A stretch of DNA of 11,657 bases from Archangium sp. (GTDB taxonomy: Bacteria > Myxococcota > Myxococcia > Myxococcales > Myxococcaceae). Every line of letters begins with the position of its first letter. The stretch's first letter is position 1. The translations under genes and the position numbers were made by a program. Below, piece by piece: positions 1-11,657 of this stretch. The stretch covers positions 1-11,657 of the forward strand of contig JANLPS010000044.1 of NCBI GenBank assembly GCA_031367385.1. The letters are read 5' to 3'. The notes under the pieces were generated by a model, which saw nothing but the letters and a program-made list of their open reading frames with translations, did not search any database and was not told the origin of the DNA.

Positions 1-531
1 GCGCCCACCGACGGCGGCACCCAGGTCACGGTTCAAGCGAGCAACCTGCCTGATGGGCAAGGCCCGGGGTATGAGGCCGGCTGGAAGGACTTCTACTTCA
101 CGCCGATGACCGAGTACTTCGGCACGCCCGGCGCCAAGTTCAAAGAGGCCGCCGATGCGCTCGAGAACGCCGTCGAGGCGGCGGTCGACCAGGCCTCTGC
201 CCAGATGACCAAGGTCGTCAACAGCGCGAAAAAAGGGTCAGCCAAGGCGGTGAAGTCGGCCAAGAAGGCGGCGTCGAGCTTCAGCAACAAGGTGCGGGCG
301 GCCCTCAAGCCCAAGGCCAAAGCGAAGGCCAAGCCCGCGAAAAAAGCGGCGGCGAGCGCCAAAAAGACCGCCCTGTCGGCGAAAAAGGCCGTGAAGAAGG
401 TCGTGGCCAAGGCCTCGAAGGCCCTCAAGGGCAAGCCGGCCAAGAAGGTCGCGGCCAAGGCTTCGAAGGCCGTGAAGAAGGCGGCGCCGGCGAAGAAGAA
501 GTCGGCCTCGAAGAAAAAGAGCCGTCGCTAA
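1..531 (+). CDS. 5'-truncated SRPBCC/AHA1 (START-like) domain protein with C-terminal Lys/Ala-rich histone H1-like tail
   Basis: Frame 1 is open from base 1: APTDGGTQVTVQASNLPDGQGPGYEAGWKDFYFTPMTEYFG, resembling the C-terminal strand and 'GW..(Y)F..M..YF' helix of SRPBCC/AHA1-like domains. An Ala-rich helix and a KKAA/KPAKK low-complexity tail follow, ending at TAA 529-531. The ORF-track start at 106 is an internal Met. Confidence 0.75.
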   Translation, partial: APTDGGTQVTVQASNLPDGQGPGYEAGWKDFYFTPMTEYFGTPGAKFKEAADALENAVEAAVDQASAQMTKVVNSAKKGSAKAVKSAKKAASSFSNKVRAALKPKAKAKAKPAKKAAASAKKTALSAKKAVKKVVAKASKALKGKPAKKVAAKASKAVKKAAPAKKKSASKKKSRR

Positions 532-575: not shown

Positions 576-2459
576 ATGCTCGTGGGTCCCCGTTGGTTGT
601 TCGCCGTGTGTGTCACCCTGACGGCGCTCGGTTGTACTTCGGGCACGGGCTGCGGCGGCTTCGTCTCGCAGGCTCCGGGCACGTACCAGGGCCCGAAAAT
701 CGACTCTGCTGGGGCCTTGCGGGTGAGCCAACACGGCTTCGCGACGCTCAGCGCCAACGGCGGCACCGCGCTGCTCGAGCTGATCGCGCCCGGAGGGACT
801 CTCGATACCAAAGTGAGCTGCGCGACCCAGGTGTTCTTGGGCGAGACCTTCGCGACGTCTGATCAAGGCGGCGTGGGCTGCACTGACGAGTCGTGTGGCC
901 GCGGAGACGGCAAGTGCGACGCCCTCGATGTACCTCAACCGGTGTCGATCGCGGTGAGCAGCTTGACGCTCCACTCGGCGACCCCTGATTTAATCGAAGC
1001 CAACCTCACCGCGACGGTGAAGACCGGCGACATCATCATCTCGTCGGCCAAGCGCAGCTCGGGCCTGTGCCTCTTGTTCGGTGGAGGCCCGGTGAAATGC
1101 GCCTTCGACTTCGACTCGACTCGGCAGCAACCGCTGACCAATGTGTTGACGGTGCAGATCAAGCTCGCGATTCGCAATGGGTTGCTCTCACTCGAGCTCG
1201 CCGACCTCACGGGCACCAAGGCCTGCGGCTCGGGCGCGAACCAGGAGTGCATCGACCCCGACGACATTCTGATCTCCCGGGTGACTGGCGGCTGCAACGT
1301 GTGCTCGACCTTGAACTCGGCCCTGGTGAAGCAGCTGCTCATCGACCAGCTGACCAAGTCGCTCAAGACGCAGCTCACCAAGTCGCTGAACAAGGTGACC
1401 TGCCAGCCTTGCGCGAACGGCACCAATCTCTGCCCGACCAACGCCGCGTGCGTCGTCGATGCCGTGACCGATGCCGGCACCTGTATGGAAAGCGCCGGAG
1501 GCCTGTGCAGCCCACGCTTTCTCGGGCTCGAAGGGCGCGCCGACCTGGGCACCTCGTTGGCCAGCTTCGGAGTGCCAGGCACCGCGGCCCTCGACGTGAG
1601 CCTCGCGCTCGGCGGCTCGACCACGGCCGAGCCCAAAGGGGCGAGCATCGGCATGCGCGGAGGGATGAGAGAAGTGGTCATCGCTCCGTGCGTCACGCCG
1701 CTCACGCCGACGACGTTGCCGAACCTGCCGTTGCCCAACTTCGATCTCGATGGGCCGGCGTCGTATGACCTGGCGTTTTCGCTCTCTCAGCAGCTGGTCT
1801 CAGAGGCGATGTTTCACGCGCAGCAGTCGGGCGCGCTGTGCCTCGAGATCGGCACCGAGACGGTGACCCAGCTCGACTCGGCCACGCTCGAGACCTTCTT
1901 GCCCTCGCTCAAAGTATTCTCTCACGGCACCAACGTGCCGATGCGCGTGGTGATTCGGCCGGTCAACCCACCGACAGCGCTCATCGGTACGGGGACCCTC
2001 GACGCGCAAGGCAAGCCGCTCGACCCGTTGATCAAGCTGAGCTGGCCGGGCGTTGAAATCGACATGTACGCGAAGGTTGAAGAGCGCCTGGTGCGCCTGT
2101 TCACCATCAGCGCCGACCTCGAGCTGCCGCTGGGGCTCGAGCTGTCAGGCTGCGGCTCGCTCAAGCCGGTGATTGGCGACTTGATGAACGCGGTGAAGAA
2201 GGTCGAAGTGAAGAACTCAGAGCTGCTCTCTGAAGATCTGGCCGCGATCGCCAAGCTGGTGCCGACCCTGCTGACACTGGCGCAGCCCGCGTTGTCGAAG
2301 GGGTTGCCCGCGGTCGCTCTGCCCTCGTTGGGCTCGACGCTACCCTTTCAAGTCAAGCTGCTGCAGGCGCGCGGCGTGGGTCAGGTGGCAGGCACGACGC
2401 AGTACAACCACCTGGGCATCTATGCGGCTCTGGTGAGCCCCGACGGCGGTTGCAACTAA
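576..2459 (+). CDS. Large Cys-rich predicted lipoprotein (627 aa), possibly with tubular lipid-binding (BPI/LBP, TULIP)-like lobes
   Basis: Hydrophobic N-terminus with lipobox-like 'LTALG-C20' and about 20 Cys in paired motifs. Long amphipathic helices alternate with long beta-strands ('YDLAFSLSQQLVSEAMFHAQQSGALCLEI'), reminiscent of BPI-like folds. The fold call is inference. Confidence 0.7.
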   Translation: MLVGPRWLFAVCVTLTALGCTSGTGCGGFVSQAPGTYQGPKIDSAGALRVSQHGFATLSANGGTALLELIAPGGTLDTKVSCATQVFLGETFATSDQGGVGCTDESCGRGDGKCDALDVPQPVSIAVSSLTLHSATPDLIEANLTATVKTGDIIISSAKRSSGLCLLFGGGPVKCAFDFDSTRQQPLTNVLTVQIKLAIRNGLLSLELADLTGTKACGSGANQECIDPDDILISRVTGGCNVCSTLNSALVKQLLIDQLTKSLKTQLTKSLNKVTCQPCANGTNLCPTNAACVVDAVTDAGTCMESAGGLCSPRFLGLEGRADLGTSLASFGVPGTAALDVSLALGGSTTAEPKGASIGMRGGMREVVIAPCVTPLTPTTLPNLPLPNFDLDGPASYDLAFSLSQQLVSEAMFHAQQSGALCLEIGTETVTQLDSATLETFLPSLKVFSHGTNVPMRVVIRPVNPPTALIGTGTLDAQGKPLDPLIKLSWPGVEIDMYAKVEERLVRLFTISADLELPLGLELSGCGSLKPVIGDLMNAVKKVEVKNSELLSEDLAAIAKLVPTLLTLAQPALSKGLPAVALPSLGSTLPFQVKLLQARGVGQVAGTTQYNHLGIYAALVSPDGGCN

Positions 2460-3568
2460 GCCTTCAGAAAGTCACGGAGCCGCTCGTAGACTGGCTCGCT
2501 GCTCAACAGCGCCAGGTGCGTCGTGTTCGAGGCGACCCAGGTTTCGGTGAAGGCCAACGTCAACGCGGGGCTGGCGTGACGACCAAGGGCGCTGTCGACC
2601 GGCACCAACCCGTCGCTGCCTGAACCCGTGTCACCGGCGATGGCGAGCGTTTTCACCCCGGGCGGGAGCGGCACTGCGCTGCGAGCATCGGCCCCGGGCT
2701 CGAAGCGGCCCTTGCCCTCCCAGTGCTCGTCGAGCACGTTGCCGTACCGCAAATCAGTCACGCCCGCGCTTCGCAGCTGCCCCAACCTTGCCAGCGGCGC
2801 GCTGTAGCGGCTCACGGTCAGCAGCACGTCGGTGAGGTTGCCCAAGCGCTCGAGGGGCGACCCGTGATGCGGCGTGCCCAACGTCACCACCTTCGTCGCC
2901 GCACGTCGCCACTGCGACCCTTCGCCGTGAACGAACGCGCTCCGCATCACCAGGCCGCCCATGCTGTGACCGATGAGCACCAGCTCGGTGACGGGTGACG
3001 GCCAGGTCGTGACCAGCTGCTCGAGCGCGGCGCTCAGCAGCCGCCCGTTCACAGAAACATGAAGGCCGCTGTTGTAGAGCGCGTACACCGGCGCGAAGCC
3101 GAGGTCTTTCGCCAGCTCAGCCCCGTGGTCATGGCCCGCGCGACGCCACTGCTCGTCGTTCATCGACGACCCGTGCACCAGCACCGCGATTCTGTCGCCG
3201 ACCCCTCGCGCGAGCAGCTGCATCTCAATCGCCAAAGGGTTGCCGGTCTCGGCGAGGTAATCACCCATCACGCCGTTGAGCGCCGAGAGCACCGCGCTGC
3301 GCTCGAGACCCGCTTGGTCGAGCACCGGTGCCAACTTCGAGAGCGCCAGGTCGAGCGTCGAGCCGACCAGGCCGGTGACGCCCCGAATCGCTCCGTAGGT
3401 AGGAGCGGTCACCACCTTCACGATCTTTTCGAGGGGTCGCCCGAGTACGTTTGGCCCAGCGCCAATGGTGCGGTGCATGGCCTCGACGATGTCGGTGACG
3501 CTGCGCGTGGCCTCGATGGCCAAGGTGGTGGCTCCACGGAGCTGGTCAATCAGCGTCTTCTTCGCCAT
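2456..3568 (-). CDS. Alpha/beta hydrolase, PGAP1-like esterase/lipase family
   Basis: Nucleophile elbow GHSMGG, oxyanion 'VLVHGS', 'TLGTPHHGSPLE', acid 'SDGLVP' and 'THLALL' His. Stop overlaps the stop of the convergent lipoprotein gene (2456-2459). Confidence 0.9.
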   Translation of the reverse strand: MAKKTLIDQLRGATTLAIEATRSVTDIVEAMHRTIGAGPNVLGRPLEKIVKVVTAPTYGAIRGVTGLVGSTLDLALSKLAPVLDQAGLERSAVLSALNGVMGDYLAETGNPLAIEMQLLARGVGDRIAVLVHGSSMNDEQWRRAGHDHGAELAKDLGFAPVYALYNSGLHVSVNGRLLSAALEQLVTTWPSPVTELVLIGHSMGGLVMRSAFVHGEGSQWRRAATKVVTLGTPHHGSPLERLGNLTDVLLTVSRYSAPLARLGQLRSAGVTDLRYGNVLDEHWEGKGRFEPGADARSAVPLPPGVKTLAIAGDTGSGSDGLVPVDSALGRHASPALTLAFTETWVASNTTHLALLSSEPVYERLRDFLKA

Positions 3569-3621: not shown

Positions 3622-3972
3622 GTGATGAGAGTCCTTCGACTGCGCTTAGGACGAACGGGGTGGCTCGTTCTCTGTCTGGTCATCGCGGCTCCGTCGTGGG
3701 CTGAGTTTCGGGCGTGCGAGCAGGTCGAGGGCCAGCCGTCGCCGCCATCGGCGCAGAAAGTGCGCGTGGTCTTCATCAACCGCTCGGAGCACCTGCGCGG
3801 GCTCTACTGGCTCGACTTCGAGGGCCACCGCAAGCTCTACACCTGGCTCAAGCCTGGTCAGACCTACGACGTCGACAGCTTCGTCGGCCACGCGTGGGCC
3901 ATCGTCGACAAGCGCCACCGCTGCCGTCGCGGCTTCGTGGTGACCGGCGTCGAAGAGGTCACCATCGATTGA
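3622..3972 (+). CDS. Secreted von Hippel-Lindau (VHL) beta-domain protein
   Basis: Signal peptide ending SWA|E, then 'VVFINRS...LYWLDFEG...Y..L.PG......SFVGHAWAIVD', the VHL beta-domain signature. Start GTG 3622 or ATG 3625, preceded by GAGG. Confidence 0.85.
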   Translation: MMRVLRLRLGRTGWLVLCLVIAAPSWAEFRACEQVEGQPSPPSAQKVRVVFINRSEHLRGLYWLDFEGHRKLYTWLKPGQTYDVDSFVGHAWAIVDKRHRCRRGFVVTGVEEVTID

Positions 3973-4579
3973 CCATCGCGGCGCGTTTCTTCTGCCGATC
4001 GCGGGCCCAGGTGAGCACTCGCAGGCCCATCAACACCACGTACACCGCCGAGTAGATCAACGCCTCGGTCGCCAGGGTCTTGCCGCGCCAGACGAAGTGA
4101 ACGCAGGCCAGCGCGCCGATGACGTAGACCAGGCGATGCAGCCTCTTCCACCGGGCAAAGCCGAGCCGCTTCACCGCGTTCGCCGTCGAGGTCACCGCCA
4201 GGGGTATCAAAGACAGCCAGGCCACGAAGCCCACCGTGATGAACGGCCGCTTCACCACGTCGTCGAGCAACACCTGCCAGTCGAGCCCATGGTCGATGAC
4301 CGACCAGGTGATGAAGTGCAGGCACGCGTAGGTGAACGCCAGGTTGCCGAGGTGTTTGCGAATGCGAATCGGCCAGGTGAGGCCCAGGTATTTCTGCGCT
4401 GGGGTGCAGCTCAAGCACGCCAACAAGCTCACCAACGTGAGCAGCCCGAGGCGGTTCAAGCCCTCGGCCACCGGGTTGGCGCCCAGGCCCCCGCTCTGTG
4501 CTTCGAGCAGCAGCATCGGCACCGGCAGCAGCCCCCCGGTCCACACGGCGGGTATCAACCAGGGCACCGGCTTCGCCAT
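3959..4579 (-). CDS. msrQ: Protein-methionine-sulfoxide reductase heme-binding membrane subunit MsrQ (YedZ; ferric reductase-like)
   Basis: 'LGANPVAE', 'RKHLGNLAFTYACLHF', 'KRPFITVG', 'LAVTST', 'WKRLHRLVY...HF' with heme-ligand His residues and several TM helices. TAATG overlap with the rpe stop. Confidence 0.92.
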   Translation of the reverse strand: MAKPVPWLIPAVWTGGLLPVPMLLLEAQSGGLGANPVAEGLNRLGLLTLVSLLACLSCTPAQKYLGLTWPIRIRKHLGNLAFTYACLHFITWSVIDHGLDWQVLLDDVVKRPFITVGFVAWLSLIPLAVTSTANAVKRLGFARWKRLHRLVYVIGALACVHFVWRGKTLATEALIYSAVYVVLMGLRVLTWARDRQKKRAAMVNRW

Positions 4580-5232
4580 TACGGTCGCAGCGCGGCGATG
4601 GCCGCTCGGTAGTCTTTCGAGCGAAAGACGTGATTGCCCGCGACGAGCACGGTGGCTCCGGCGGCGATGACCTGTTTGGCGGTGTCGGCGTTGATGCCTC
4701 CGTCGACCTCGATGTCGACGTGCCCCAGGCCACGGGCGTTGAGCTGCTCACGCAGCCTTCGAACCTTGTCGACCGTGGCCGTGATGAAGCTCTGGCCGCC
4801 GAAGCCGGGGTTCACCGACATCAGCAAGACCTGCGAGACCTCGCCCAGCACCTCTTCAATCGCCACCAGCGGCGTCGACGGGTTGAGCACCACCGACGGC
4901 TTGGCCCCCGCGTCGCGAATCTGGTGCAGCGTGCGGTGCAGGTGCGGGCAGGTCTCGGCATGCACCGTGATGATGCTCGCGCCGGCTTTGGCGAAGTCAG
5001 CGATGTACTTTTCGGGCTCGACGATCATCAGGTGCACATCGAGCGGCAGGCCCGTCGCCTTGCGCACCGCCTCGACCACCAGCGGGCCGATGGTGATGTT
5101 GGGCACGAAGCGGCCGTCCATCACGTCGACGTGCACGTAGTCAGCACCGGCGGCTTCGATGGCCTTGACCTCTTCGGCGAGGCGCCCGAAATCGGCTGAG
5201 AGAATCGAGGGCGCAATTTTCACGGCGGTCAT
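4579..5232 (-). CDS. rpe: Ribulose-phosphate 3-epimerase
   Basis: Canonical motifs [54 protein letters not shown] overlap with the upstream MBL gene. Confidence 0.98.
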
Positions 5233-6080
5233 GGGTGCTCCAAAGCTGTGTACATCTGCCGAATGGTCTTTTCACGACTCGAGCCACCGAACGGCATCGC
5301 CTGCAGGTCATCGAAGCCCGTCAGGTGAATCTCACGTACCGCATCGTCAGCGGTTTTGCCGCTTTCACGCGACTGCCGCACCGCTGCCTCGACCGCCGCA
5401 AGGTAATCGCGCACGTGCTCGACCTGGGCTCGGGTCATCACGTCTCCGTGACCGGGCAAGACCTGGGTGAAATCGAGCGCGAGCAACCGGTCGAGCGTGG
5501 AGCGAAAGGCCAGCGCGTTGCCCCCCGCCTGCTCGTCGATTCGCGGCTCGTAGCCATTCACCAGCAGATCTCCGGCGACCAGAATCTTTCGAGAGACCAG
5601 CAGCGCGACCAGGTCTCCATCGGTGTGGCCGGCGCCGAGGTACATGATTTGAACGGTTTCTCCGCCCAGGAGCAGCTCGATGGAGTGCTCGACCTCGACG
5701 AAGGGCGCGTGGGTGCCCTCGGCTTCGAGGCGCTTGCGGGTGGCGGGGTGCACGATCACCGCACCTACATTGGGGTACAGGTTCAGACCCCCGGCATGGT
5801 CTGGGTGCGAGTGGGTCAGCAGCAACCGCCGCACCGACTTGGCAAGCTCGGTCTCGACCTCGTAGCGCAGCTGGCGGGCCATGCCGGCGAATTTCACGTC
5901 GGTGATGAAGGCCTGATCATCGTGGGTGAGCACCAGGGAGTTGCCCCCACCTCCGAGAAAGAAGAGCACCCGCTCGTCGATTCGGCGCTTGTCGACCCGC
6001 AGAAACATCTGCGCGGCGCACCCGGCGAGCAGCGCACAGCAGGCCGTCGCGGCGATGAGTCGGTTCACGGCGGGCAACAT
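5229..6080 (-). CDS. Metallo-beta-lactamase-fold hydrolase (cyclase/glyoxalase II-like), predicted lipoprotein
   Basis: HxHxDH (THSHPDH), GHTDGD, AGDL and PGHG metal-binding motifs; lipobox LLAG-C. Start placed at ATG 6080 (or GTG 6068) rather than 6155, so that the signal peptide is N-terminal. Confidence 0.88.
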
Positions 6081-6162
6081 CACTTGTGGCGGCCCCGATT
6101 TCCACGACGAAACTGTGTTTGCCGTGTTGCGGAGCCCCCTTCGAGGGAGGAACATCGCAAGC

Positions 6163-7686
6163 GTGTCTGACTTTCAAGAGGAAAAGACCTCCCCATCGGT
6201 AAGCCCGCTTCAAGCCACGATGCGGCGGGTCAACAAGCTGAACTCGATTCTCGAGGTGGCGAAGGCGATGACCGCCGCCCACAACCTCGACACGCTGCTG
6301 CCGTTGATCATGGTCGAGGCGGCCCGGGTCGTCGAAGCCGACCGGTGCTCGCTGTTCATCGTCGACCGGCACCGCAACGAGCTGTGGAGCCGGGTCGCGC
6401 AGGGTACCACCGGCGAGATTCGTTTGCCGATGGGCCAGGGCATCGCCGGCTCGGTCGCGCAGACCGGCGTGCTGGTGAACTTGAAAGACGCCTACGCCGA
6501 CCCCCGCTTCAATCGGGAGTGGGACGTGAAGAACGGCTATCGCACCTCGAGCATTCTGTGCGTGCCGATGCGCGATACGCGGGGCGATGTGACCGGCGTG
6601 ATTCAGGCGCTCAATTCGGTGCACGCGGCGTTCGATGCTGAAGACGAAGAGCTGATGCTGGCGTTGGGTGGGCAGGCGGCGCAGGCAATTGAAAACGCGA
6701 TGCTGCACGAAGAGATCAACTCGCTGTTCGAGGGTTTCGTGCAGGCCTCGGTGGGGGCGATTGAGTCACGCGACCCCACCACGGCCGGGCACTCGAGCCG
6801 GGTGGCGTCGCTGACGGTGGCGTTGGCGCAGACGACTGAGATGACTCCGGGGGGGCCGTACCGCGGGCTGACGTTCACCGCCGACCAGCTGCAGGAGCTT
6901 CGCTACGCGTCACTGCTTCACGACTTCGGCAAGATCGGCGTGCGCGAGAACGTGCTGGTCAAGGCCGACAAGCTGTACGGGCATGAGCTCGATTTGCTCA
7001 AGCAGCGGTTCGAGCTGGCCCGGCGCGACCGGCAGATGTCGTCGCTGCAGCGCAAGCTCGACGCAGTGAAGATTCGTGGTGAGCGGGCCTTCGACGAGAT
7101 TGAAGCTGAAGAGAAAGCCCGGCTCGAGGCGTCGCTCAAGGAGCTCGATGAGGCGTTCGAGTTCGTGCTGCAGGCGAACCGGCCGACGGTGTTGGCGCAG
7201 GGTGGCTTCGAGAAGCTGGCGGGGCTCTCGAGCATCGCGTTCAACGATTCGCGCGACCGGGTGCAGATGCTGCTGACTCCGGGTGAGGTGCAGGTGCTCT
7301 CGATACCGAAGGGCTCGCTGTCGGTGGCCGAGCGTCGCGAGATCGAGTCGCATGTGACGCACACCTTTCGGTTTCTCTCGCAGATACCGTGGACACGAAC
7401 GCTCAAGCGGGTGCCGGAGATTGCGTATGCGCATCACGAGAAGCTCGATGGCAAGGGCTACCCGCGGGCCATTGCGGTCGAGCTGATACCGGTGCAGTCG
7501 AAGATGATGGCGATTTCAGACATCTACGATGCGCTGACCGCGAGCGACCGGCCGTACAAGAAGGCGGTGCCCCATGCGCTGGCGCTCGACATTTTGCACA
7601 AAGAGGCAGCGGGCGGGCAGCTCGACCCTGAGCTGCTGAAGATCTTCGTTGAGGCCGACATCCCCGGGCGGGTCGCGAAGAAGTAG
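6163..7686 (+). CDS. GAF domain + HD-GYP cyclic dinucleotide phosphodiesterase
   Basis: GAF: 'ADRCSLFIVD', 'GIAGSVAQTG', 'DAYADPRFN', 'ILCVPM', 'GVIQALN'. HD-GYP: 'ESRDPTTAGHS', 'LHDFGKIG', 'HHEKLDGKGYP', 'DIYDALT', 'RPYKK'. Start placed at GTG 6163 after GGAGG (6146-6150); ATG 6220 is the alternative. The ORF-track start at 5926 would overlap the MBL gene. Confidence 0.93.
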   Translation: MSDFQEEKTSPSVSPLQATMRRVNKLNSILEVAKAMTAAHNLDTLLPLIMVEAARVVEADRCSLFIVDRHRNELWSRVAQGTTGEIRLPMGQGIAGSVAQTGVLVNLKDAYADPRFNREWDVKNGYRTSSILCVPMRDTRGDVTGVIQALNSVHAAFDAEDEELMLALGGQAAQAIENAMLHEEINSLFEGFVQASVGAIESRDPTTAGHSSRVASLTVALAQTTEMTPGGPYRGLTFTADQLQELRYASLLHDFGKIGVRENVLVKADKLYGHELDLLKQRFELARRDRQMSSLQRKLDAVKIRGERAFDEIEAEEKARLEASLKELDEAFEFVLQANRPTVLAQGGFEKLAGLSSIAFNDSRDRVQMLLTPGEVQVLSIPKGSLSVAERREIESHVTHTFRFLSQIPWTRTLKRVPEIAYAHHEKLDGKGYPRAIAVELIPVQSKMMAISDIYDALTASDRPYKKAVPHALALDILHKEAAGGQLDPELLKIFVEADIPGRVAKK

Positions 7687-7688
7687 CA

Positions 7689-8387
7689 CTACCGCTGGCA
7701 AGTGGCGTCGTCGCAGACGCAGGGCTCGTCGGCCGGTGCCGGTGCGGCGCACCCAGCGAGCGGCGTGAGTCGAATCGGGTCGAGCGAATTGAAGCCTGAC
7801 ACCAGGGTGATCATCGTGCTGAACGCGGCGTACCCACCTTTGCCTGCCGCGAGGGTTTGAGGGCCTCCGGGGGCCAGGTTGCGGAGCTCGAAGTACCCCT
7901 TTCGGGTCTCTGAGCACAGCGAATGCCCGTTGACGGTGACCCGCGCTGAGATGGGAGCCCCGGTGCAGGCGCTCACCACGTCGGAGCTCAAAATCGCCGC
8001 CGCCACGCACTGCTGTGTCGCCGTGTCGCACACCTGCCCTCCACCACAGCCACCGCAGCCCAGCGGGCTCAACGCGATGTCGAGGTGGTTGGCGCCGGCG
8101 TGAATGCTGCCCTCGAGCGAGCGAGGTGCGTACCCTTCTTTGAGCGCGACGTCGCTCCATGGGCCGACGGCGACGTGGTCGAGCCGGTACGCGCCACGCG
8201 AATCACTGGTGGCGGCGCCAATCACGACGGCGGGCAGCGGCGCACCGTTTCGCGCGTCGTAGGTGGTGCCCAAAAGCCAGGCCTGCGGCGCGGGTGAGAG
8301 CCGAAAGACCTCTTCGCTGGTGAGCGGCGAGAGGCCGCAGGCGGCGAGCAACGGCAGCACCGCAACGAGGCAAATCTTCACAGCCAT
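7689..8387 (-). CDS. Cys-rich lipoprotein with two carboxypeptidase-regulatory-like (CarboxypepD_reg-type) beta-sandwich repeats
   Basis: ATG 8387 with GGAG 7 nt upstream (or GTG 8381, a GTGA overlap with the caspase stop). Lipobox LLAA-C. Two repeats, 'G...DARNGAPL...G.Y.L..V..G....A.K.GY' and 'SACTGAPI...GYFEL.NL.PG...A.K.GY', are separated by a Cys-rich linker. Confidence 0.78.
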   Translation of the reverse strand: MAVKICLVAVLPLLAACGLSPLTSEEVFRLSPAPQAWLLGTTYDARNGAPLPAVVIGAATSDSRGAYRLDHVAVGPWSDVALKEGYAPRSLEGSIHAGANHLDIALSPLGCGGCGGGQVCDTATQQCVAAAILSSDVVSACTGAPISARVTVNGHSLCSETRKGYFELRNLAPGGPQTLAAGKGGYAAFSTMITLVSGFNSLDPIRLTPLAGCAAPAPADEPCVCDDATCQR

Positions 8388-10066
8388 ACACTGACTCCGA
8401 CGAGCAGCGAGGGTTCGGCAAAGGGCAAGCGGGTGCCATCGAGGTTGACCCAGGCGGCTTCGAAGCGCCCGTCGAGCCAGGCCGAGATGCGTCGCGACAA
8501 GAACAGCTCGGCGCGAACGTCGGCGCCAATCGATGGCGCGAGGGGGTCGCCGTGAGCACCGAGCACGATGGTCTTGAAGCCGACCAGCGCCGAGCCCGAG
8601 AGCGCAAAGAGGTTCTTGAAGAAGAGAAACCGCCAGCCGGCCTGCGCATGCACCCCCAGGCGAAACATCGAGCTGCGGGTGCCGAGGGTGGAGTAGGTCG
8701 ACGCGCGCGCGGCGATTCGACCTCCGAGGAGCAAGCCGCCGAGGTGAAACCGCGCTCCGATTTCGGCGCCCTGCTCGACGCCCGGCAAGCCGAATGGCGC
8801 TGGCGCCAACACGTACGACGCGTCGAGCGCGGTGCCCAAGGCTCGGGCGAGGGGTGGCTCTCGGCCGGCCACGAAACCCGTCTCTAAAGCGGCGACGGCT
8901 TCGAGTGAAAACGGCGTCTGAAACGAGCGCGTCTGCCAATCGACATCGCCCCGCTCGGCGACGTGCGGCAGCGCGGTGGGCTCACCGAAGGGCGAGAGCT
9001 GGCTGGTCTCGGCGGCGACCACGTCGACCATCGCCACGCGCGCCCGATTCGCGCCGTCGAGGTGCTGCACCTGGTAACGCCCGGCCGGCAGCGTGAGTGA
9101 GAGGCTGCGACCCTTGGCCTTGTTCACCTCGGCGAAGACCGGAGCGCCGGTCGACGAGACCACCCGCATGCGCCCCTCGACCTCGGGCGCGAGCTCCAAC
9201 TTCGAGCTGCCGCGCAGGTCGACCACGGGCGCGCGGAGATCGCCTGCAGGGGCTTCGAACCACGGCCGTTGACCGGTGAGCCGCTCGGTGTTGAACGCCA
9301 CGAACGCGGCGAGCTCTCCGAAGCTGACCAACTCGTCACCGTTGACGTCGGCCGCGCCGGCGAGGCCCGAGGCCAGCACGTGCGAGAAGAAACCACCTTG
9401 GAGATCGCTCGCTTCTCCCGCGGGCTTGTCGCTCTGGGTGGCGGTGATGACCCCGAAGACGGCGCGCCGGCCGCGGTTCTCGAGCGCGTCGATTTCAGCC
9501 GAGAGGTCGGGCCCGCCGCGCTCGACGAACAGGCTTTGCGAGCGGCACGCATCGATGAACAGGTCGACGCGATCGAGCTCGAGCGCCGCCAGTCGAACGC
9601 GCAGCTCATGGCCGGTGAGGCCCGACTCTTCGGTGCCTTCGGGCGCGAGCAGCATTCGGCCGGTGAGCCCGTGGCCGGCGTAGAAGAAATACAGCACCGC
9701 GGGCCGCTTCGAGGTTCGGCGGGCCAGCCGCGCTTGAACGGCGTCGAGGGTCGCGAACAGATTCGCGCGGGTGGGGGCCTGGGTCTTGGGCAAAGCGATG
9801 CCTGCGCTCTGAAGGCCGGCGCGCGTCGTTTCATCGGGCTCGGTCAGCACCCACACGTGCGCGGGCGTGGCGAGCAGCTCGAACCAGCGCGCCATTCGCA
9901 GCGCGTCATCGTCTGCGTAGCGAAGCGGTGAGAGCTCGGGGCGCTCGGAGGTCGCCGTGAGCCCACCATTGTAGCCGACCACCACGGCGTAGACGTCGGC
10001 ATCGGCAGGGGTCTCGGCCCACGCCGCGAGCGTGAACATCGACAGCACTGTCGCCAGCGGGCGCAT
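8378..10066 (-). CDS. Exported caspase-family (peptidase C14, orthocaspase/metacaspase-like) protease with probable C-terminal outer-membrane beta-barrel
   Basis: Start ATG 10066 (TGATG overlap with the anti-sigma stop); signal peptide AWA|E. Motifs 'YAVVVGYN', 'LRYADDDA', His dyad YAGHG (H132), Cys dyad FIDACRS (C174), 'GGFFSHVLASGLAGAAD', EF-hand-like DVNGDELVSFGE and PEGA/Ig-like 'LTLPAGRYQV'. Alternating amphipathic strands end in VGVSVWL. 562 aa. Confidence 0.88.
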   Translation of the reverse strand: MRPLATVLSMFTLAAWAETPADADVYAVVVGYNGGLTATSERPELSPLRYADDDALRMARWFELLATPAHVWVLTEPDETTRAGLQSAGIALPKTQAPTRANLFATLDAVQARLARRTSKRPAVLYFFYAGHGLTGRMLLAPEGTEESGLTGHELRVRLAALELDRVDLFIDACRSQSLFVERGGPDLSAEIDALENRGRRAVFGVITATQSDKPAGEASDLQGGFFSHVLASGLAGAADVNGDELVSFGELAAFVAFNTERLTGQRPWFEAPAGDLRAPVVDLRGSSKLELAPEVEGRMRVVSSTGAPVFAEVNKAKGRSLSLTLPAGRYQVQHLDGANRARVAMVDVVAAETSQLSPFGEPTALPHVAERGDVDWQTRSFQTPFSLEAVAALETGFVAGREPPLARALGTALDASYVLAPAPFGLPGVEQGAEIGARFHLGGLLLGGRIAARASTYSTLGTRSSMFRLGVHAQAGWRFLFFKNLFALSGSALVGFKTIVLGAHGDPLAPSIGADVRAELFLSRRISAWLDGRFEAAWVNLDGTRLPFAEPSLLVGVSVWL

Positions 10067-10701
10067 CACTCGACCCACAACACACCGGCCGGCTGCTTTT
10101 GAGCAAGGGGGGCCGCTTGAATGAAGAGCCGCCAGCGACCCGCCTCGAGCGCGACGCTTTGATTCGGCTCGAACACCCGCGGGGGCTCTTCGTCGCGTTG
10201 ACCTGAGACGATCGCCGCCCCGTCGAGCTTGAACTGCACCCAGTCTCCGTGAGCGACCCGCGCTTCTCCGGCCGTGGGGAGGTCGGCCACCAGGCGCACC
10301 GGCTCGTTCTTGGTCTTCGCGTACACCCGCACCGAGAGGGCCCGTGGGGCATCGCCTCCACCGCGCTCTCGCACTTCGGGCTCGGGAGGTCTCGAGACGA
10401 GTAACGCCACGCCGAGGGCAAGCGCGGCGGCCAGCGCCACCCACTTGATGCCAGCGGTTCTGGGCGAGGCACGCCGGTCGGTCGGCAGCCCCTCGAGCAG
10501 CCGATGGAGCCCCCGCTCGAGCTCTTCACCGGTCGGCGCTTGCGGCTGTCTGGCGACCCGGGCCGTCACCGTCAGCAGGTCGTAGCGGGCTCGACACGCG
10601 TCGCAGCCGCCGAGGTGACGACGAAGGTCGAGCTCTTCGGGGCCTGACAGCTCGCCCGCGACCGCGCGGGTGATTCGACGGCCGTACCAGAGCAGGCTCA
10701 C
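10066..10701 (-). CDS. Membrane-anchored zinc-binding anti-sigma factor (zf-HC2/ZAS) with extracytoplasmic beta-rich domain
   Basis: HxxxCxxC (H29-LGG-C33-DA-C36) and one TM helix (W87-V102), then RERGG and a ~100-aa beta-rich domain. Lies directly downstream of the ECF sigma gene with a GTGA overlap. Confidence 0.88.
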   Translation of the reverse strand: MSLLWYGRRITRAVAGELSGPEELDLRRHLGGCDACRARYDLLTVTARVARQPQAPTGEELERGLHRLLEGLPTDRRASPRTAGIKWVALAAALALGVALLVSRPPEPEVRERGGGDAPRALSVRVYAKTKNEPVRLVADLPTAGEARVAHGDWVQFKLDGAAIVSGQRDEEPPRVFEPNQSVALEAGRWRLFIQAAPLAQKQPAGVLWVE

Positions 10702-11306
10702 AAGAGCTCCTTGGCCAGGCGGCCCAACATCGAGTCGGCGGCGAGGTGCTCGAGCAGCTTCTTCTTCAAGTACTTCGAGCGACGCGGGTTCACCCCCAGG
10801 TTTCGGGCGACTTCGTCGTGGGGGCGCTCCTCGAGCAGCGACTGTTGCAAGACGAGGGCTTCATCGGCCGAGAGCGTGGCCGTGACCGCGAGCATCGCCT
10901 GGGTGACCCGCGCGGTGAGGGTCGGGTCTGCGGGCGTGGGCGCCTCGAGCCAGCGCGCCTCATCGACGTCGTCGAGGGGTATCGAGCTCTCAAGCCGTCG
11001 GCCCTTCGCGCGAACCAGCTCTCGACACCGATTGGCGGCGACCACGCGCAGCCACGGGCCAAGCGCGCCTCGGTTCACGTCGAAGCTGGTCTGCATGCGA
11101 TGCACCATCAACCAAATCTCCTGCGCTGCTTCTTCTTGCTCGAAGGGGCTGCGAAAGAACCGACCGACCCACCGCCGAACCTGCACGCCACGCGCTCGAT
11201 ACACCTCGACAAAAGCCGCCCGCTCGCCTCCTGCGAAGCGAACGAGCAACTCGGTGGTTTCGCCGACCTGAAGTGGCAGTGGCTCCACGGTTTGGTTCTT
11301 GGGCAC
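10698..11306 (-). CDS. ECF-type RNA polymerase sigma-70 factor
   Basis: Region 2: 'GERAAFVEVY', 'EEAAQEIWL', 'PWLRVVAANRCRELVR'. Region 4: 'LSADEALVL...HDEVARNLGV'. Followed by an anti-sigma gene. Start uncertain (TTG 11336, GTG 11306 or GTG 11288); the promoter motif argues against 11336. Confidence 0.88.
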   Translation of the reverse strand: MPKNQTVEPLPLQVGETTELLVRFAGGERAAFVEVYRARGVQVRRWVGRFFRSPFEQEEAAQEIWLMVHRMQTSFDVNRGALGPWLRVVAANRCRELVRAKGRRLESSIPLDDVDEARWLEAPTPADPTLTARVTQAMLAVTATLSADEALVLQQSLLEERPHDEVARNLGVNPRRSKYLKKKLLEHLAADSMLGRLAKELL

Positions 11307-11309
11307 TCT

Positions 11310-11336
11310 TATGCCGGGCACCCGGGGGAGGGACAA
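11310..11336 (-). promoter_or_regulatory. Putative ECF promoter for the sigma operon (TTGTCC-N13-CCGGCATA)
   Basis: Minus strand reads TTGTCC ctcccccgggtgc CCGGCATA; the same bipartite motif occurs in the opposite orientation at 11349-11374. Confidence 0.55.
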
Positions 11337-11348
11337 AATTCAGCCCGA

Positions 11349-11374
11349 TTGTCCTCGCGCGCGCGGCCGGCATA
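11349..11374 (+). promoter_or_regulatory. Putative ECF promoter for the divergent lipoprotein gene (TTGTCC-N12-CCGGCATA)
   Basis: Plus strand reads TTGTCC tcgcgcgcgcgg CCGGCATA and ends 9 nt before ATG 11384; mirror copy of the motif at 11310-11336. Confidence 0.55.
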
Positions 11375-11383
11375 CCAGGCGCC

Positions 11384-11657
11384 ATGAACTCGACCCGCAA
11401 GACCCTCGTTCTGTGGTTGATGGTGGCGGCCTGTGGCGACCCGGCAATCGCTCCCGACCCCAAGCTGAAGCTGGCCAGCGCGCTCGCCGCCTGCCCTCAA
11501 TGCCCCGCGGTCGCCTACGCCTCGAGCGACGGCTTCGTGGTGCACGAGTGGGGCACGCTCACCTCGGTCATGGGCAGCGACGGCGTGCTGTTGCCCGGCC
11601 TTCACCACGAAGAAGAAGATTTGCCCGGCTTCGTGGCTGACCGGGTCGCGCAGGTCG
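11384..11657 (+). CDS. 3'-truncated conserved hypothetical lipoprotein (VHEWGT motif family)
   Basis: Absent from the ORF track because it has no stop in the window. Translates as MNSTRKTLVLWLMVAA-CGDPAIAPDPKLKLASALAACPQCPAVAYASSDGFVVHEWGTLTSVMGSDGVLLPGLHHEEEDLPGFV... Lipobox VAA-C. The 'VHEWGT.TS..G.DG...EDLP.FV' pattern is one I recognise from uncharacterised exported bacterial proteins. Confidence 0.8.
   Translation, partial: MNSTRKTLVLWLMVAACGDPAIAPDPKLKLASALAACPQCPAVAYASSDGFVVHEWGTLTSVMGSDGVLLPGLHHEEEDLPGFVADRVAQV

Follow-up and report, generated by a model that had tools for sequence, protein, structure and literature searches.

The window considered here, meaning the whole analysed stretch of 11,657 nucleotides from Archangium sp. 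(contig JANLPS010000044.1), encodes on its minus strand a sigma factor of the extracytoplasmic function (ECF) type, an anti-sigma factor that sits in the membrane, an exported caspase-like protease of family C14 and a lipoprotein, with all four genes overlapping or abutting. The sigma factor has regions 2 and 4 only and is co-encoded with a single-pass anti-sigma carrying HxxxCxxC. The subject of this analysis is a set of three basic-Gly dipeptides, two in the caspase and one in the anti-sigma, that are retained across relatives of the operon and are predicted to be cleaved.

10698..11288, minus strand: ECF sigma factor (Pfam Sigma70_r2 E 7.6e-10 and weak region 4 matches; TIGR02937 over cut-off)
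10066..10701, minus strand: single-pass zinc anti-sigma of 211 amino acids (zf-HC2 E 2.3e-6)
8378..10066, minus strand: exported C14 caspase-like protease of 562 residues (Peptidase_C14 E 4.2e-6)
9515..9523, minus strand: site 1, E182-R183-G184, nine residues after the catalytic Cys in a flexible loop, predicted self-cleavage site (R183 kept in 119 of 120 homologues)
8948..8956, minus strand: site 2, E371-R372-G373 in a variable linker, predicted second self-cleavage site (R372 kept in 120 of 120)
10360..10368, minus strand: site 3, E112-R113-G114 of the anti-sigma, 11 residues outside the transmembrane helix, predicted site-1 cleavage position (38 of 38)
10510..10518, minus strand: fourth Glu-Arg-Gly copy, ELERGL (R63), in the cytoplasmic part of the anti-sigma (from sequence)

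The sequence-only reading of this stretch had singled out the tripeptide Glu-Arg-Gly (ERG) at R183, R372 and anti-sigma R113, together with a fourth, cytoplasmic copy (R63), and the first three lie exactly where it placed them. Across the two proteins, 20,000 composition shuffles give 0.45 copies on average against the four observed (P for at least four, 0.0006), but this count is post hoc and indicative only, so that conservation was tested as the stronger criterion. In the best 120 of 226 caspase homologues (40-100% identity; the named relatives are Myxococcota, and no relative was found in viral contigs), the Gly is present at position 184 in 111 sequences (with Asp in eight) and at position 373 in 118, and among the 53 Arg or Lys positions of the caspase, five are basic in at least 119 sequences, two of these being R183 and R372. 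The flanks of site 2 (358-371 and 374-380) vary freely, the commonest residue in any column reaching at most 52 of 120. Among 38 anti-sigmas, aligned from the transmembrane helix on with a mean column identity of 30%, no column other than R113, G114 and P142 is invariant. The check proposed in the sequence-only reading, conservation of the basic-Gly sites in homologues, came out in favour at all three positions. The Glu is not conserved and precedes the basic residue in 85 of 120 sequences at site 1, 46 of 120 at site 2 and 6 of 40 at the anti-sigma site; ERG as such was therefore ruled out as the motif. The conserved motif is [R/K]-G, with Asp, Ser or Ala sometimes in the P1' position, and the common Glu is, judging by the aligned sequences, a local coincidence of one subclade. 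The fourth, cytoplasmic copy, about which the sequence-only reading had itself been wary, is [R/K]-G in 2 of 40 relatives and was dismissed as a chance occurrence, and the other Arg-Gly or Lys-Gly dipeptides of the caspase were likewise rejected: R198 is basic in 99 of 120 sequences but followed by Gly in three, whereas R285 reaches 75 of 120 and K318 45 of 120.

The same dipeptides recur in a survey of complete loci. From 293 loci, 283 with the catalytic Cys, 218 with a sigma gene and a transmembrane-protein gene upstream and 208 of sufficient length were successively retained, leaving 157 below 85% identity, which comprise 40 loci of the window's own Arg (R) clade, 60 of another R clade and 57 of a Lys (K) clade. 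An [R/K]G dipeptide lies within 36 residues outside the membrane in 152 of the 157 anti-sigmas, compared with a shuffle mean of 67.6 (maximum 87 in 1000 shuffles), and segments of the same size contain one in 40 and 36 anti-sigmas further out and in 34 on the cytoplasmic side; the distance of the site from the membrane is 3-27 residues. A second set of loci, gathered by Pfam match alone (44 complete of 90), has [R/K]G at site 1 in 44 of 44, with offsets of 7-13 residues from the Cys allowed, and at the anti-sigma site in 41 of 44. Seven PF00656 matches (L328, L329, L332, L334, L347, L351, L368), in which the script found no D-x-C (FLDA-R or VLDA-M occurs nearby), are possibly inactive or differently built caspase-like proteins.

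Within the genome of origin (7.97 Mb), 33 of 61 sigma-like open reading frames (ORFs) are followed by a transmembrane-protein gene, and the juxtamembrane motif is found in 6 of 6 caspase-linked anti-sigmas compared with 4 of 27 other sigma-adjacent membrane proteins (Fisher p 1.9e-4, for paralogues that are not independent). Every one of the six PF00656 genes encoded there belongs to a sigma/anti-sigma/caspase operon. Two profiles match caspases in 233 and 246 of 301 Myxococcota genomes, tallies that, alone among the results given here, include the unpublished genome G196 and that count matches, not verified operons.

The caspase itself has an apparently intact active site and a composite architecture, with four further features of interest.

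8381..8836, minus strand: C-terminal eight-stranded beta-barrel, predicted outer-membrane anchor (strands 411-561; Foldseek OmpA, OmpW and NspA, prob 1.00)
9905..9916, minus strand: A51-D-D-D54 loop, predicted to form an acidic S1 pocket together with D172 (clade conservation)
9314..9349, minus strand: EF-hand-like loop D240..E251, candidate Ca2+ site (helix-loop-helix in the model)
8864..8923, minus strand: segment F382..PF386..helix behind site 2, which may act as a latch on the catalytic domain (conservation, R clades only)

The match to PF00656 scores 27 bits against a cut-off of 21.4, and the catalytic pair, H132 (nt 9671-9673) and C174 (nt 9545-9547), is invariant in the caspase alignment A1; C174 is kept in 120 of 120 homologues and the catalytic His in 57 of 57, 40 of 40 and 60 of 60 loci of the K, own R and other R clades, which were selected on these motifs. 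A signal peptide can be read from the sequence. The structural model, an AlphaFold2 prediction for the cluster representative that differs from the window protein at two residues, has a mean predicted local distance difference test (pLDDT) score of 89.7 and consists of a caspase domain, for which Foldseek returns Yca1, AtMC9 and TbMCA2 (prob 1.00), and a beta-rich middle domain, from which a linker leads to a helix (388-402) followed by eight long strands (411-561). The block 181-190 around site 1 drops to pLDDT 59, and all three sites are predicted to lie in exposed, non-helical linkers. Eight-stranded barrels of this sort have both ends facing the periplasm, and the protease is therefore predicted to hang in the periplasm from its outer-membrane barrel.

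We take the acidic loop to be residue-equivalent to the metacaspase pocket. D52, D53, D54 and D172 are invariant in the caspase alignment, and their putative position in the pocket follows metacaspases as described in the accessible text of PMC5756287. The EF-hand-like loop keeps its D1, D/N5 and E12 positions in 53 of 57, 36 of 40 and 55 of 60 pattern-matched loci, that is, in all three clades, and provides a lead for Ca2+ control. Behind site 2, F382 and F386 are present in 118 and 119 of 120 homologues, respectively, and [FY]xxP[FYLM] occurs after the site in 27 of 40 and 52 of 60 R-clade loci compared with 3 of 57 in the K clade. The profile of the EACC1-associated caspase system (NF047832) gives the window caspase 28.5 bits and its paralogues 43-67 bits, well below the cut-off of 140.

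In the anti-sigma, zf-HC2 (nt 10591-10677) and the transmembrane helix (nt 10396-10452) are followed in the model (pLDDT 90.8) by a 21-residue coil that contains R113 and a periplasmic beta-sandwich of about 90 residues. Fold searches return generic Ig-like matches only (best Z 7.1, none with Z of at least 8). DUF4384 (PF14326) is unmatched by the window anti-sigma and weakly matched by 4 of 38 relatives (E at most 0.05, best E 1.5e-4). Prediction of a complex between caspase residues 19-362 and the periplasmic part of the anti-sigma yields a score of 0.02, which counts neither for nor against an interaction.

The order of the genes, a His-Cys pair that is intact, the retention of the three sites among relatives and the tie of the anti-sigma site to caspase operons are observed directly. 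On this basis, we consider it fairly probable that the caspase is a dedicated site-1-type protease that cuts itself and then the anti-sigma, freeing the sigma factor; every cleavage step, the order of the steps and the signal are inferred. An envelope signal, perhaps together with Ca2+, would trigger the caspase, which would cut itself after R183 and R372; the cut at R372 would remove the C-terminal latch segment and, in the window, also the barrel, so that the enzyme could reach the inner membrane and cut the anti-sigma after R113. RseP would then cut the anti-sigma stub and release the sigma factor, which would transcribe its own operon and a divergent lipoprotein gene from TTGTCC/GGCATA promoters, creating positive feedback, and a preference for Arg or Lys would partly insulate paralogous modules. 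A RseP-type site-2 protease is encoded in the genome (TIGR00054 over cut-off, C273), which, for a nearly universal enzyme, is weak evidence.

The role of site 2 is constrained by relatives that have no anchor. The sequence-only reading took cleavage at R372 to release the protease from the membrane, but all 21 anchor-less relatives (not de-replicated), which end about 45 residues after site 2 and have no hydrophobic anchor, keep Arg-Gly there, followed by the F..PF-helix segment, so that anchor release is ruled out as the sole role: a cut would remove the conserved C-terminal segment, with loss of the barrel at most one consequence. In this group (L149-L202, e.g. L173 and L180), the anti-sigma (20 of 21) and the sigma factor (14 of 21 by profile) are encoded downstream on the opposite strand, and the next gene appears to encode a separate membrane protein. 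Among loci of the other R clade (R-clade B, e.g. L053, L152 and L177), a hydrophobic helix region takes the place of the terminal barrel in 27 of 59, so that the anchor type is exchangeable whereas the three sites stay.

The retention of site 2 without an anchor and with a conserved segment behind it also fits a different scheme, in which the basic-Gly loops are never cut and serve as docking or pseudo-substrate latches in the S1 pocket, holding the protease shut or tethering it to the anti-sigma; a change of conformation would then carry the signal, in the manner of cell-surface signalling. Pocket binding alone would keep the basic residue and make it follow the pocket type. Nevertheless, we regard such uncleaved latches as unlikely, given the invariance of the His-Cys pair in homologues, although the loci were selected on those motifs, and the small P1' residue at a site 3-27 residues from the membrane, which fit a scissile bond that leaves a RseP-sized stub.

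The sequence-only reading also proposed to test whether the sites co-vary within loci, and they do agree. The window has Arg at all three sites and its five paralogues in the genome have Lys at all three; among the 157 loci, 84 are R,R,R, 56 are K,K,K, ten are mixed and seven have a site unscored. The anti-sigma site was picked here by an ad hoc score, and a plain first-hit rule gives 86 R/R, 53 K/K, 12 mixed and six unscored. In the 44 further loci, K,K,K is found in 33. The pocket loop could be scored by pattern match in 39 of 40 and 43 of 60 R-clade enzymes, where it is A-D-D-D-A throughout, and is A-x-x-D-A in 57 K-clade enzymes, a split by clade that would be expected if the pocket of the enzyme itself sets the motif. 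Two R-clade loci (L211 and L221) combine A-D-D-D-A with Lys at site 1, Lys-Ser at site 2 and Lys-Gly in the anti-sigma, an apparent single, independent full switch to Lys, as far as the sequences indicate.

Several observations weigh against the proposed cascade or limit what the Arg/Lys agreement can say for it. In a FastTree phylogeny built with the site loop and the linker excluded, the three sites require 4, 5 and 8 changes, with 3-6 independent pairs and sign-test p values of 0.5-1; the agreement is thus real but mostly reflects one ancient deep split, is not significant on the tree and was dropped as independent statistical evidence of co-evolution. Ten of 150 fully scored loci are mixed, K,R,K occurs in 5 of the 44 further loci, one locus (L050) has Lys at both caspase sites but Arg in the anti-sigma, and a K-clade caspase (L349) has Arg at both of its own sites and an anti-sigma with no clear juxtamembrane basic-Gly. 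Single-site swaps occur in both directions, with Lys in the R clade and Arg in the K clade. The specificity is therefore not strict, and probably amounts to a preference. Furthermore, Gly does not follow the site-1 Arg in nine loci, a site-1-like motif (at offsets of 7-11 residues from the Cys) turns up in 5 of 23 caspases of other types, and the anti-sigma site of the anchor-less group reads Arg-Gly in nine, Arg-Ser in eight, Arg-Ala in two and Arg-Lys in one, that is, 11 of 20 have Ser, Ala or Lys after the Arg. Finally, given the promoter predicted for the operon, the caspase is itself among the outputs of the sigma factor, so that it need not be the upstream trigger.

The loss of significance after tree correction and the tolerance of single sites for either residue are what one would expect if the motifs were structural turns passed on by descent, or sites attacked by some general trypsin-like protease of the envelope, and agreed through shared ancestry only. 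Such an origin seems very unlikely to us because the same dipeptide is kept in three non-homologous linkers of two proteins while the flanks vary freely, because one genome holds both R and K modules, which disfavours a shared housekeeping protease, and because other anti-sigmas do not have the site.

The output of the sigma factor appears to be narrow.

11310..11336, minus strand: TTGTCC-N15-GGCATA, predicted to be the ECF promoter that serves the sigma operon (motif search)
11349..11374, plus strand: second copy, TTGTCC-N14-GGCATA, back-to-back with the first and facing the divergent gene (motif search)
11384..11657, plus strand: lipobox-bearing divergent gene, truncated where the window ends (sequence; 9 of the clade's 40 loci have a homologue)
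7689..8387, minus strand: the operon's fourth gene, encoding a lipoprotein that has carboxypeptidase-regulatory-like domains (PF13620 E 7.1e-11)

The strict TTGTCC/GGCATA motif has two copies in the 7.97 Mb genome, both at 11310-11374, and the relaxed motif is found in 36 of 40 loci of the window's clade compared with 1 of 60 and 0 of 57 in the others; the sigma factor presumably recognises this motif. The two back-to-back promoters point to a two-operon regulon, of which the divergent lipobox gene is a likely member. The promoter position also makes the GTG at 11288 the likely start of the sigma gene, as the TTG of a longer ORF, at 11336, sits inside the predicted -35 element.

A clade-specific promoter of its own means that the protease is likely sigma-induced, and the neighbouring lipoproteins are conserved (for the downstream one, 28 of the clade's 40 loci encode a homologue), both of which would suit a caspase that acts as a downstream effector or feedback amplifier, processing itself and able to cut the anti-sigma while another protease or signal is the first trigger and the caspase has its main substrates elsewhere in the envelope. 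This amplifier role is improbable in our estimate: with two strict promoters, the predicted regulon is tiny, so that few other outputs or substrates are apparent, and the site in the anti-sigma is restricted to operons with a caspase (the 6 of 6 against 4 of 27 given above). Returning to the dedicated site-1 protease, a broader generalisation, which we offer tentatively and doubt slightly more than we believe, is that the outer-membrane-tethered caspase is a receptor-zymogen of phylum-wide trans-envelope signalling, which would free itself by self-cleavage, traverse the periplasm and cut its cognate anti-sigma, while the S1 loop would define a code of Arg-Gly or Lys-Gly that separates paralogous switches in one cell.

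Two-step release of a sigma factor is familiar from the DegS/RseP-RseA-sigmaE pathway. The likeness, as covered in the accessible text of PMC10028731 and PMC8999054, lies in a periplasmic site-1 cut followed by RseP; the site-1 enzyme here would differ from DegS in being a self-processing Cys protease of the caspase fold, with an outer-membrane anchor and a gene of its own next to each sigma gene. Outside the animal caspases, C14 enzymes cleave on the C-terminal side of Arg or Lys, and the orthocaspase MaOC1 must cleave itself (PMC5756287, accessible part). MaOC1 and type II metacaspases (PMC5756287, PMC8283722) share the His-Cys pair and have the acidic pocket and the self-cleavage after a basic residue, needed for activity, that are predicted for the window caspase, but, unlike it, are described in the accessible parts of these papers with neither a signal peptide-barrel architecture nor an anti-sigma partner.

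Also close are the metacaspase-sigma-70 operons of Myxococcus xanthus DK1622 (four), Anaeromyxobacter, Haliangium and Sorangium (Asplund-Samuelsson 2012, PMC3501461), which are very likely the same module; the operon section of that paper mentions no anti-sigma, barrel, cleavage site or mechanism, and its discussion leans to cell death, so that, by its accessible text, the operon has been in print since 2012 without a mechanism. DdvS/DdvA of M. xanthus (PMC11506125) similarly combines an ECF sigma factor, a zinc-binding single-pass anti-sigma, a periplasmic caspase-fold domain as the proposed site-1 protease and RseP at site 2, and DdvA falls to RseP once its periplasmic part is removed. In DdvA, however, TPR-CHAT is inside the anti-sigma, the active site is incomplete and cleavage is unproven in the part of the paper available, whereas the window has a separate C14 enzyme, a barrel and matched basic-Gly sites; a DdvA-type protein, with TPR-CHAT fused to the anti-sigma, is excluded here, the anti-sigma having only 211 amino acids with the beta-sandwich.

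In the type III-E CASP system (PMC10028731, 10.1101/2022.08.17.504292), the caspase-fold protein Csx29 cuts the co-encoded anti-sigma Csx30 and frees CASP-sigma, and in one group of Csx30 proteins the C-terminal domain belongs to DUF4384, the family weakly matched by the four anti-sigma relatives noted above. Csx29 differs, according to the accessible text, in belonging to the CHAT family, being cytoplasmic and RNA-triggered via Cas7-11, and cutting after Met inside the C-terminal domain; the window has no CRISPR genes, and none of the ten window proteins scanned gave a CHAT or Cas match. DdvA and Csx29/Csx30 are, on these partial accounts, functional analogues, and neither defines the system of the window. 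The module is not described in the accessible text of PMC8999054, PMC7159879 or an ECF re-classification preprint; the main text of the latter does not contain 'C14', 'peptidase' or 'DUF4384', although its supplements with per-group descriptions may mention the neighbourhood. The literature search, whose coverage largely leaves out subscription journals, found no paper on these sites or this mechanism, and none on a possible link between these genes and the M. xanthus act operon (ActD).

To the published operons the window adds an R-type clade, controls, the anchor-less test and a tree-corrected limit on co-variation. The targets of bacterial caspases are a long-open question, and reviews, in their accessible parts, name one characterised orthocaspase. 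The present finding supplies a candidate named substrate, three exact predicted bonds and a promoter reporter. The module is matched in most of the sampled Myxococcota genomes and accounts for all six caspases of its own genome; if the broader receptor-zymogen reading is correct, most myxobacterial caspases would gain a defined substrate and a job in signalling.

The remaining genes of the window are neighbours of the operon, two of which (the epimerase-like and MsrQ-like ones) are presumably what their names say.

5926-7686, plus strand: GAF and HD phosphodiesterase-like protein
5229-6050, minus strand: metallo-beta-lactamase-fold protein
4579-5232, minus strand: ribulose-phosphate epimerase-like protein
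3959-4579, minus strand: MsrQ-like protein
2456-3568, minus strand: PGAP1-like hydrolase
3622-3972, plus strand: VHL beta-domain protein
576-2459, plus strand: Cys-rich likely lipoprotein (no Pfam match)

At the far end of the window (1-531, plus strand) lies the 3' part of a gene whose product has a long Lys/Ala-rich, histone-like tail with an AKK repeat.

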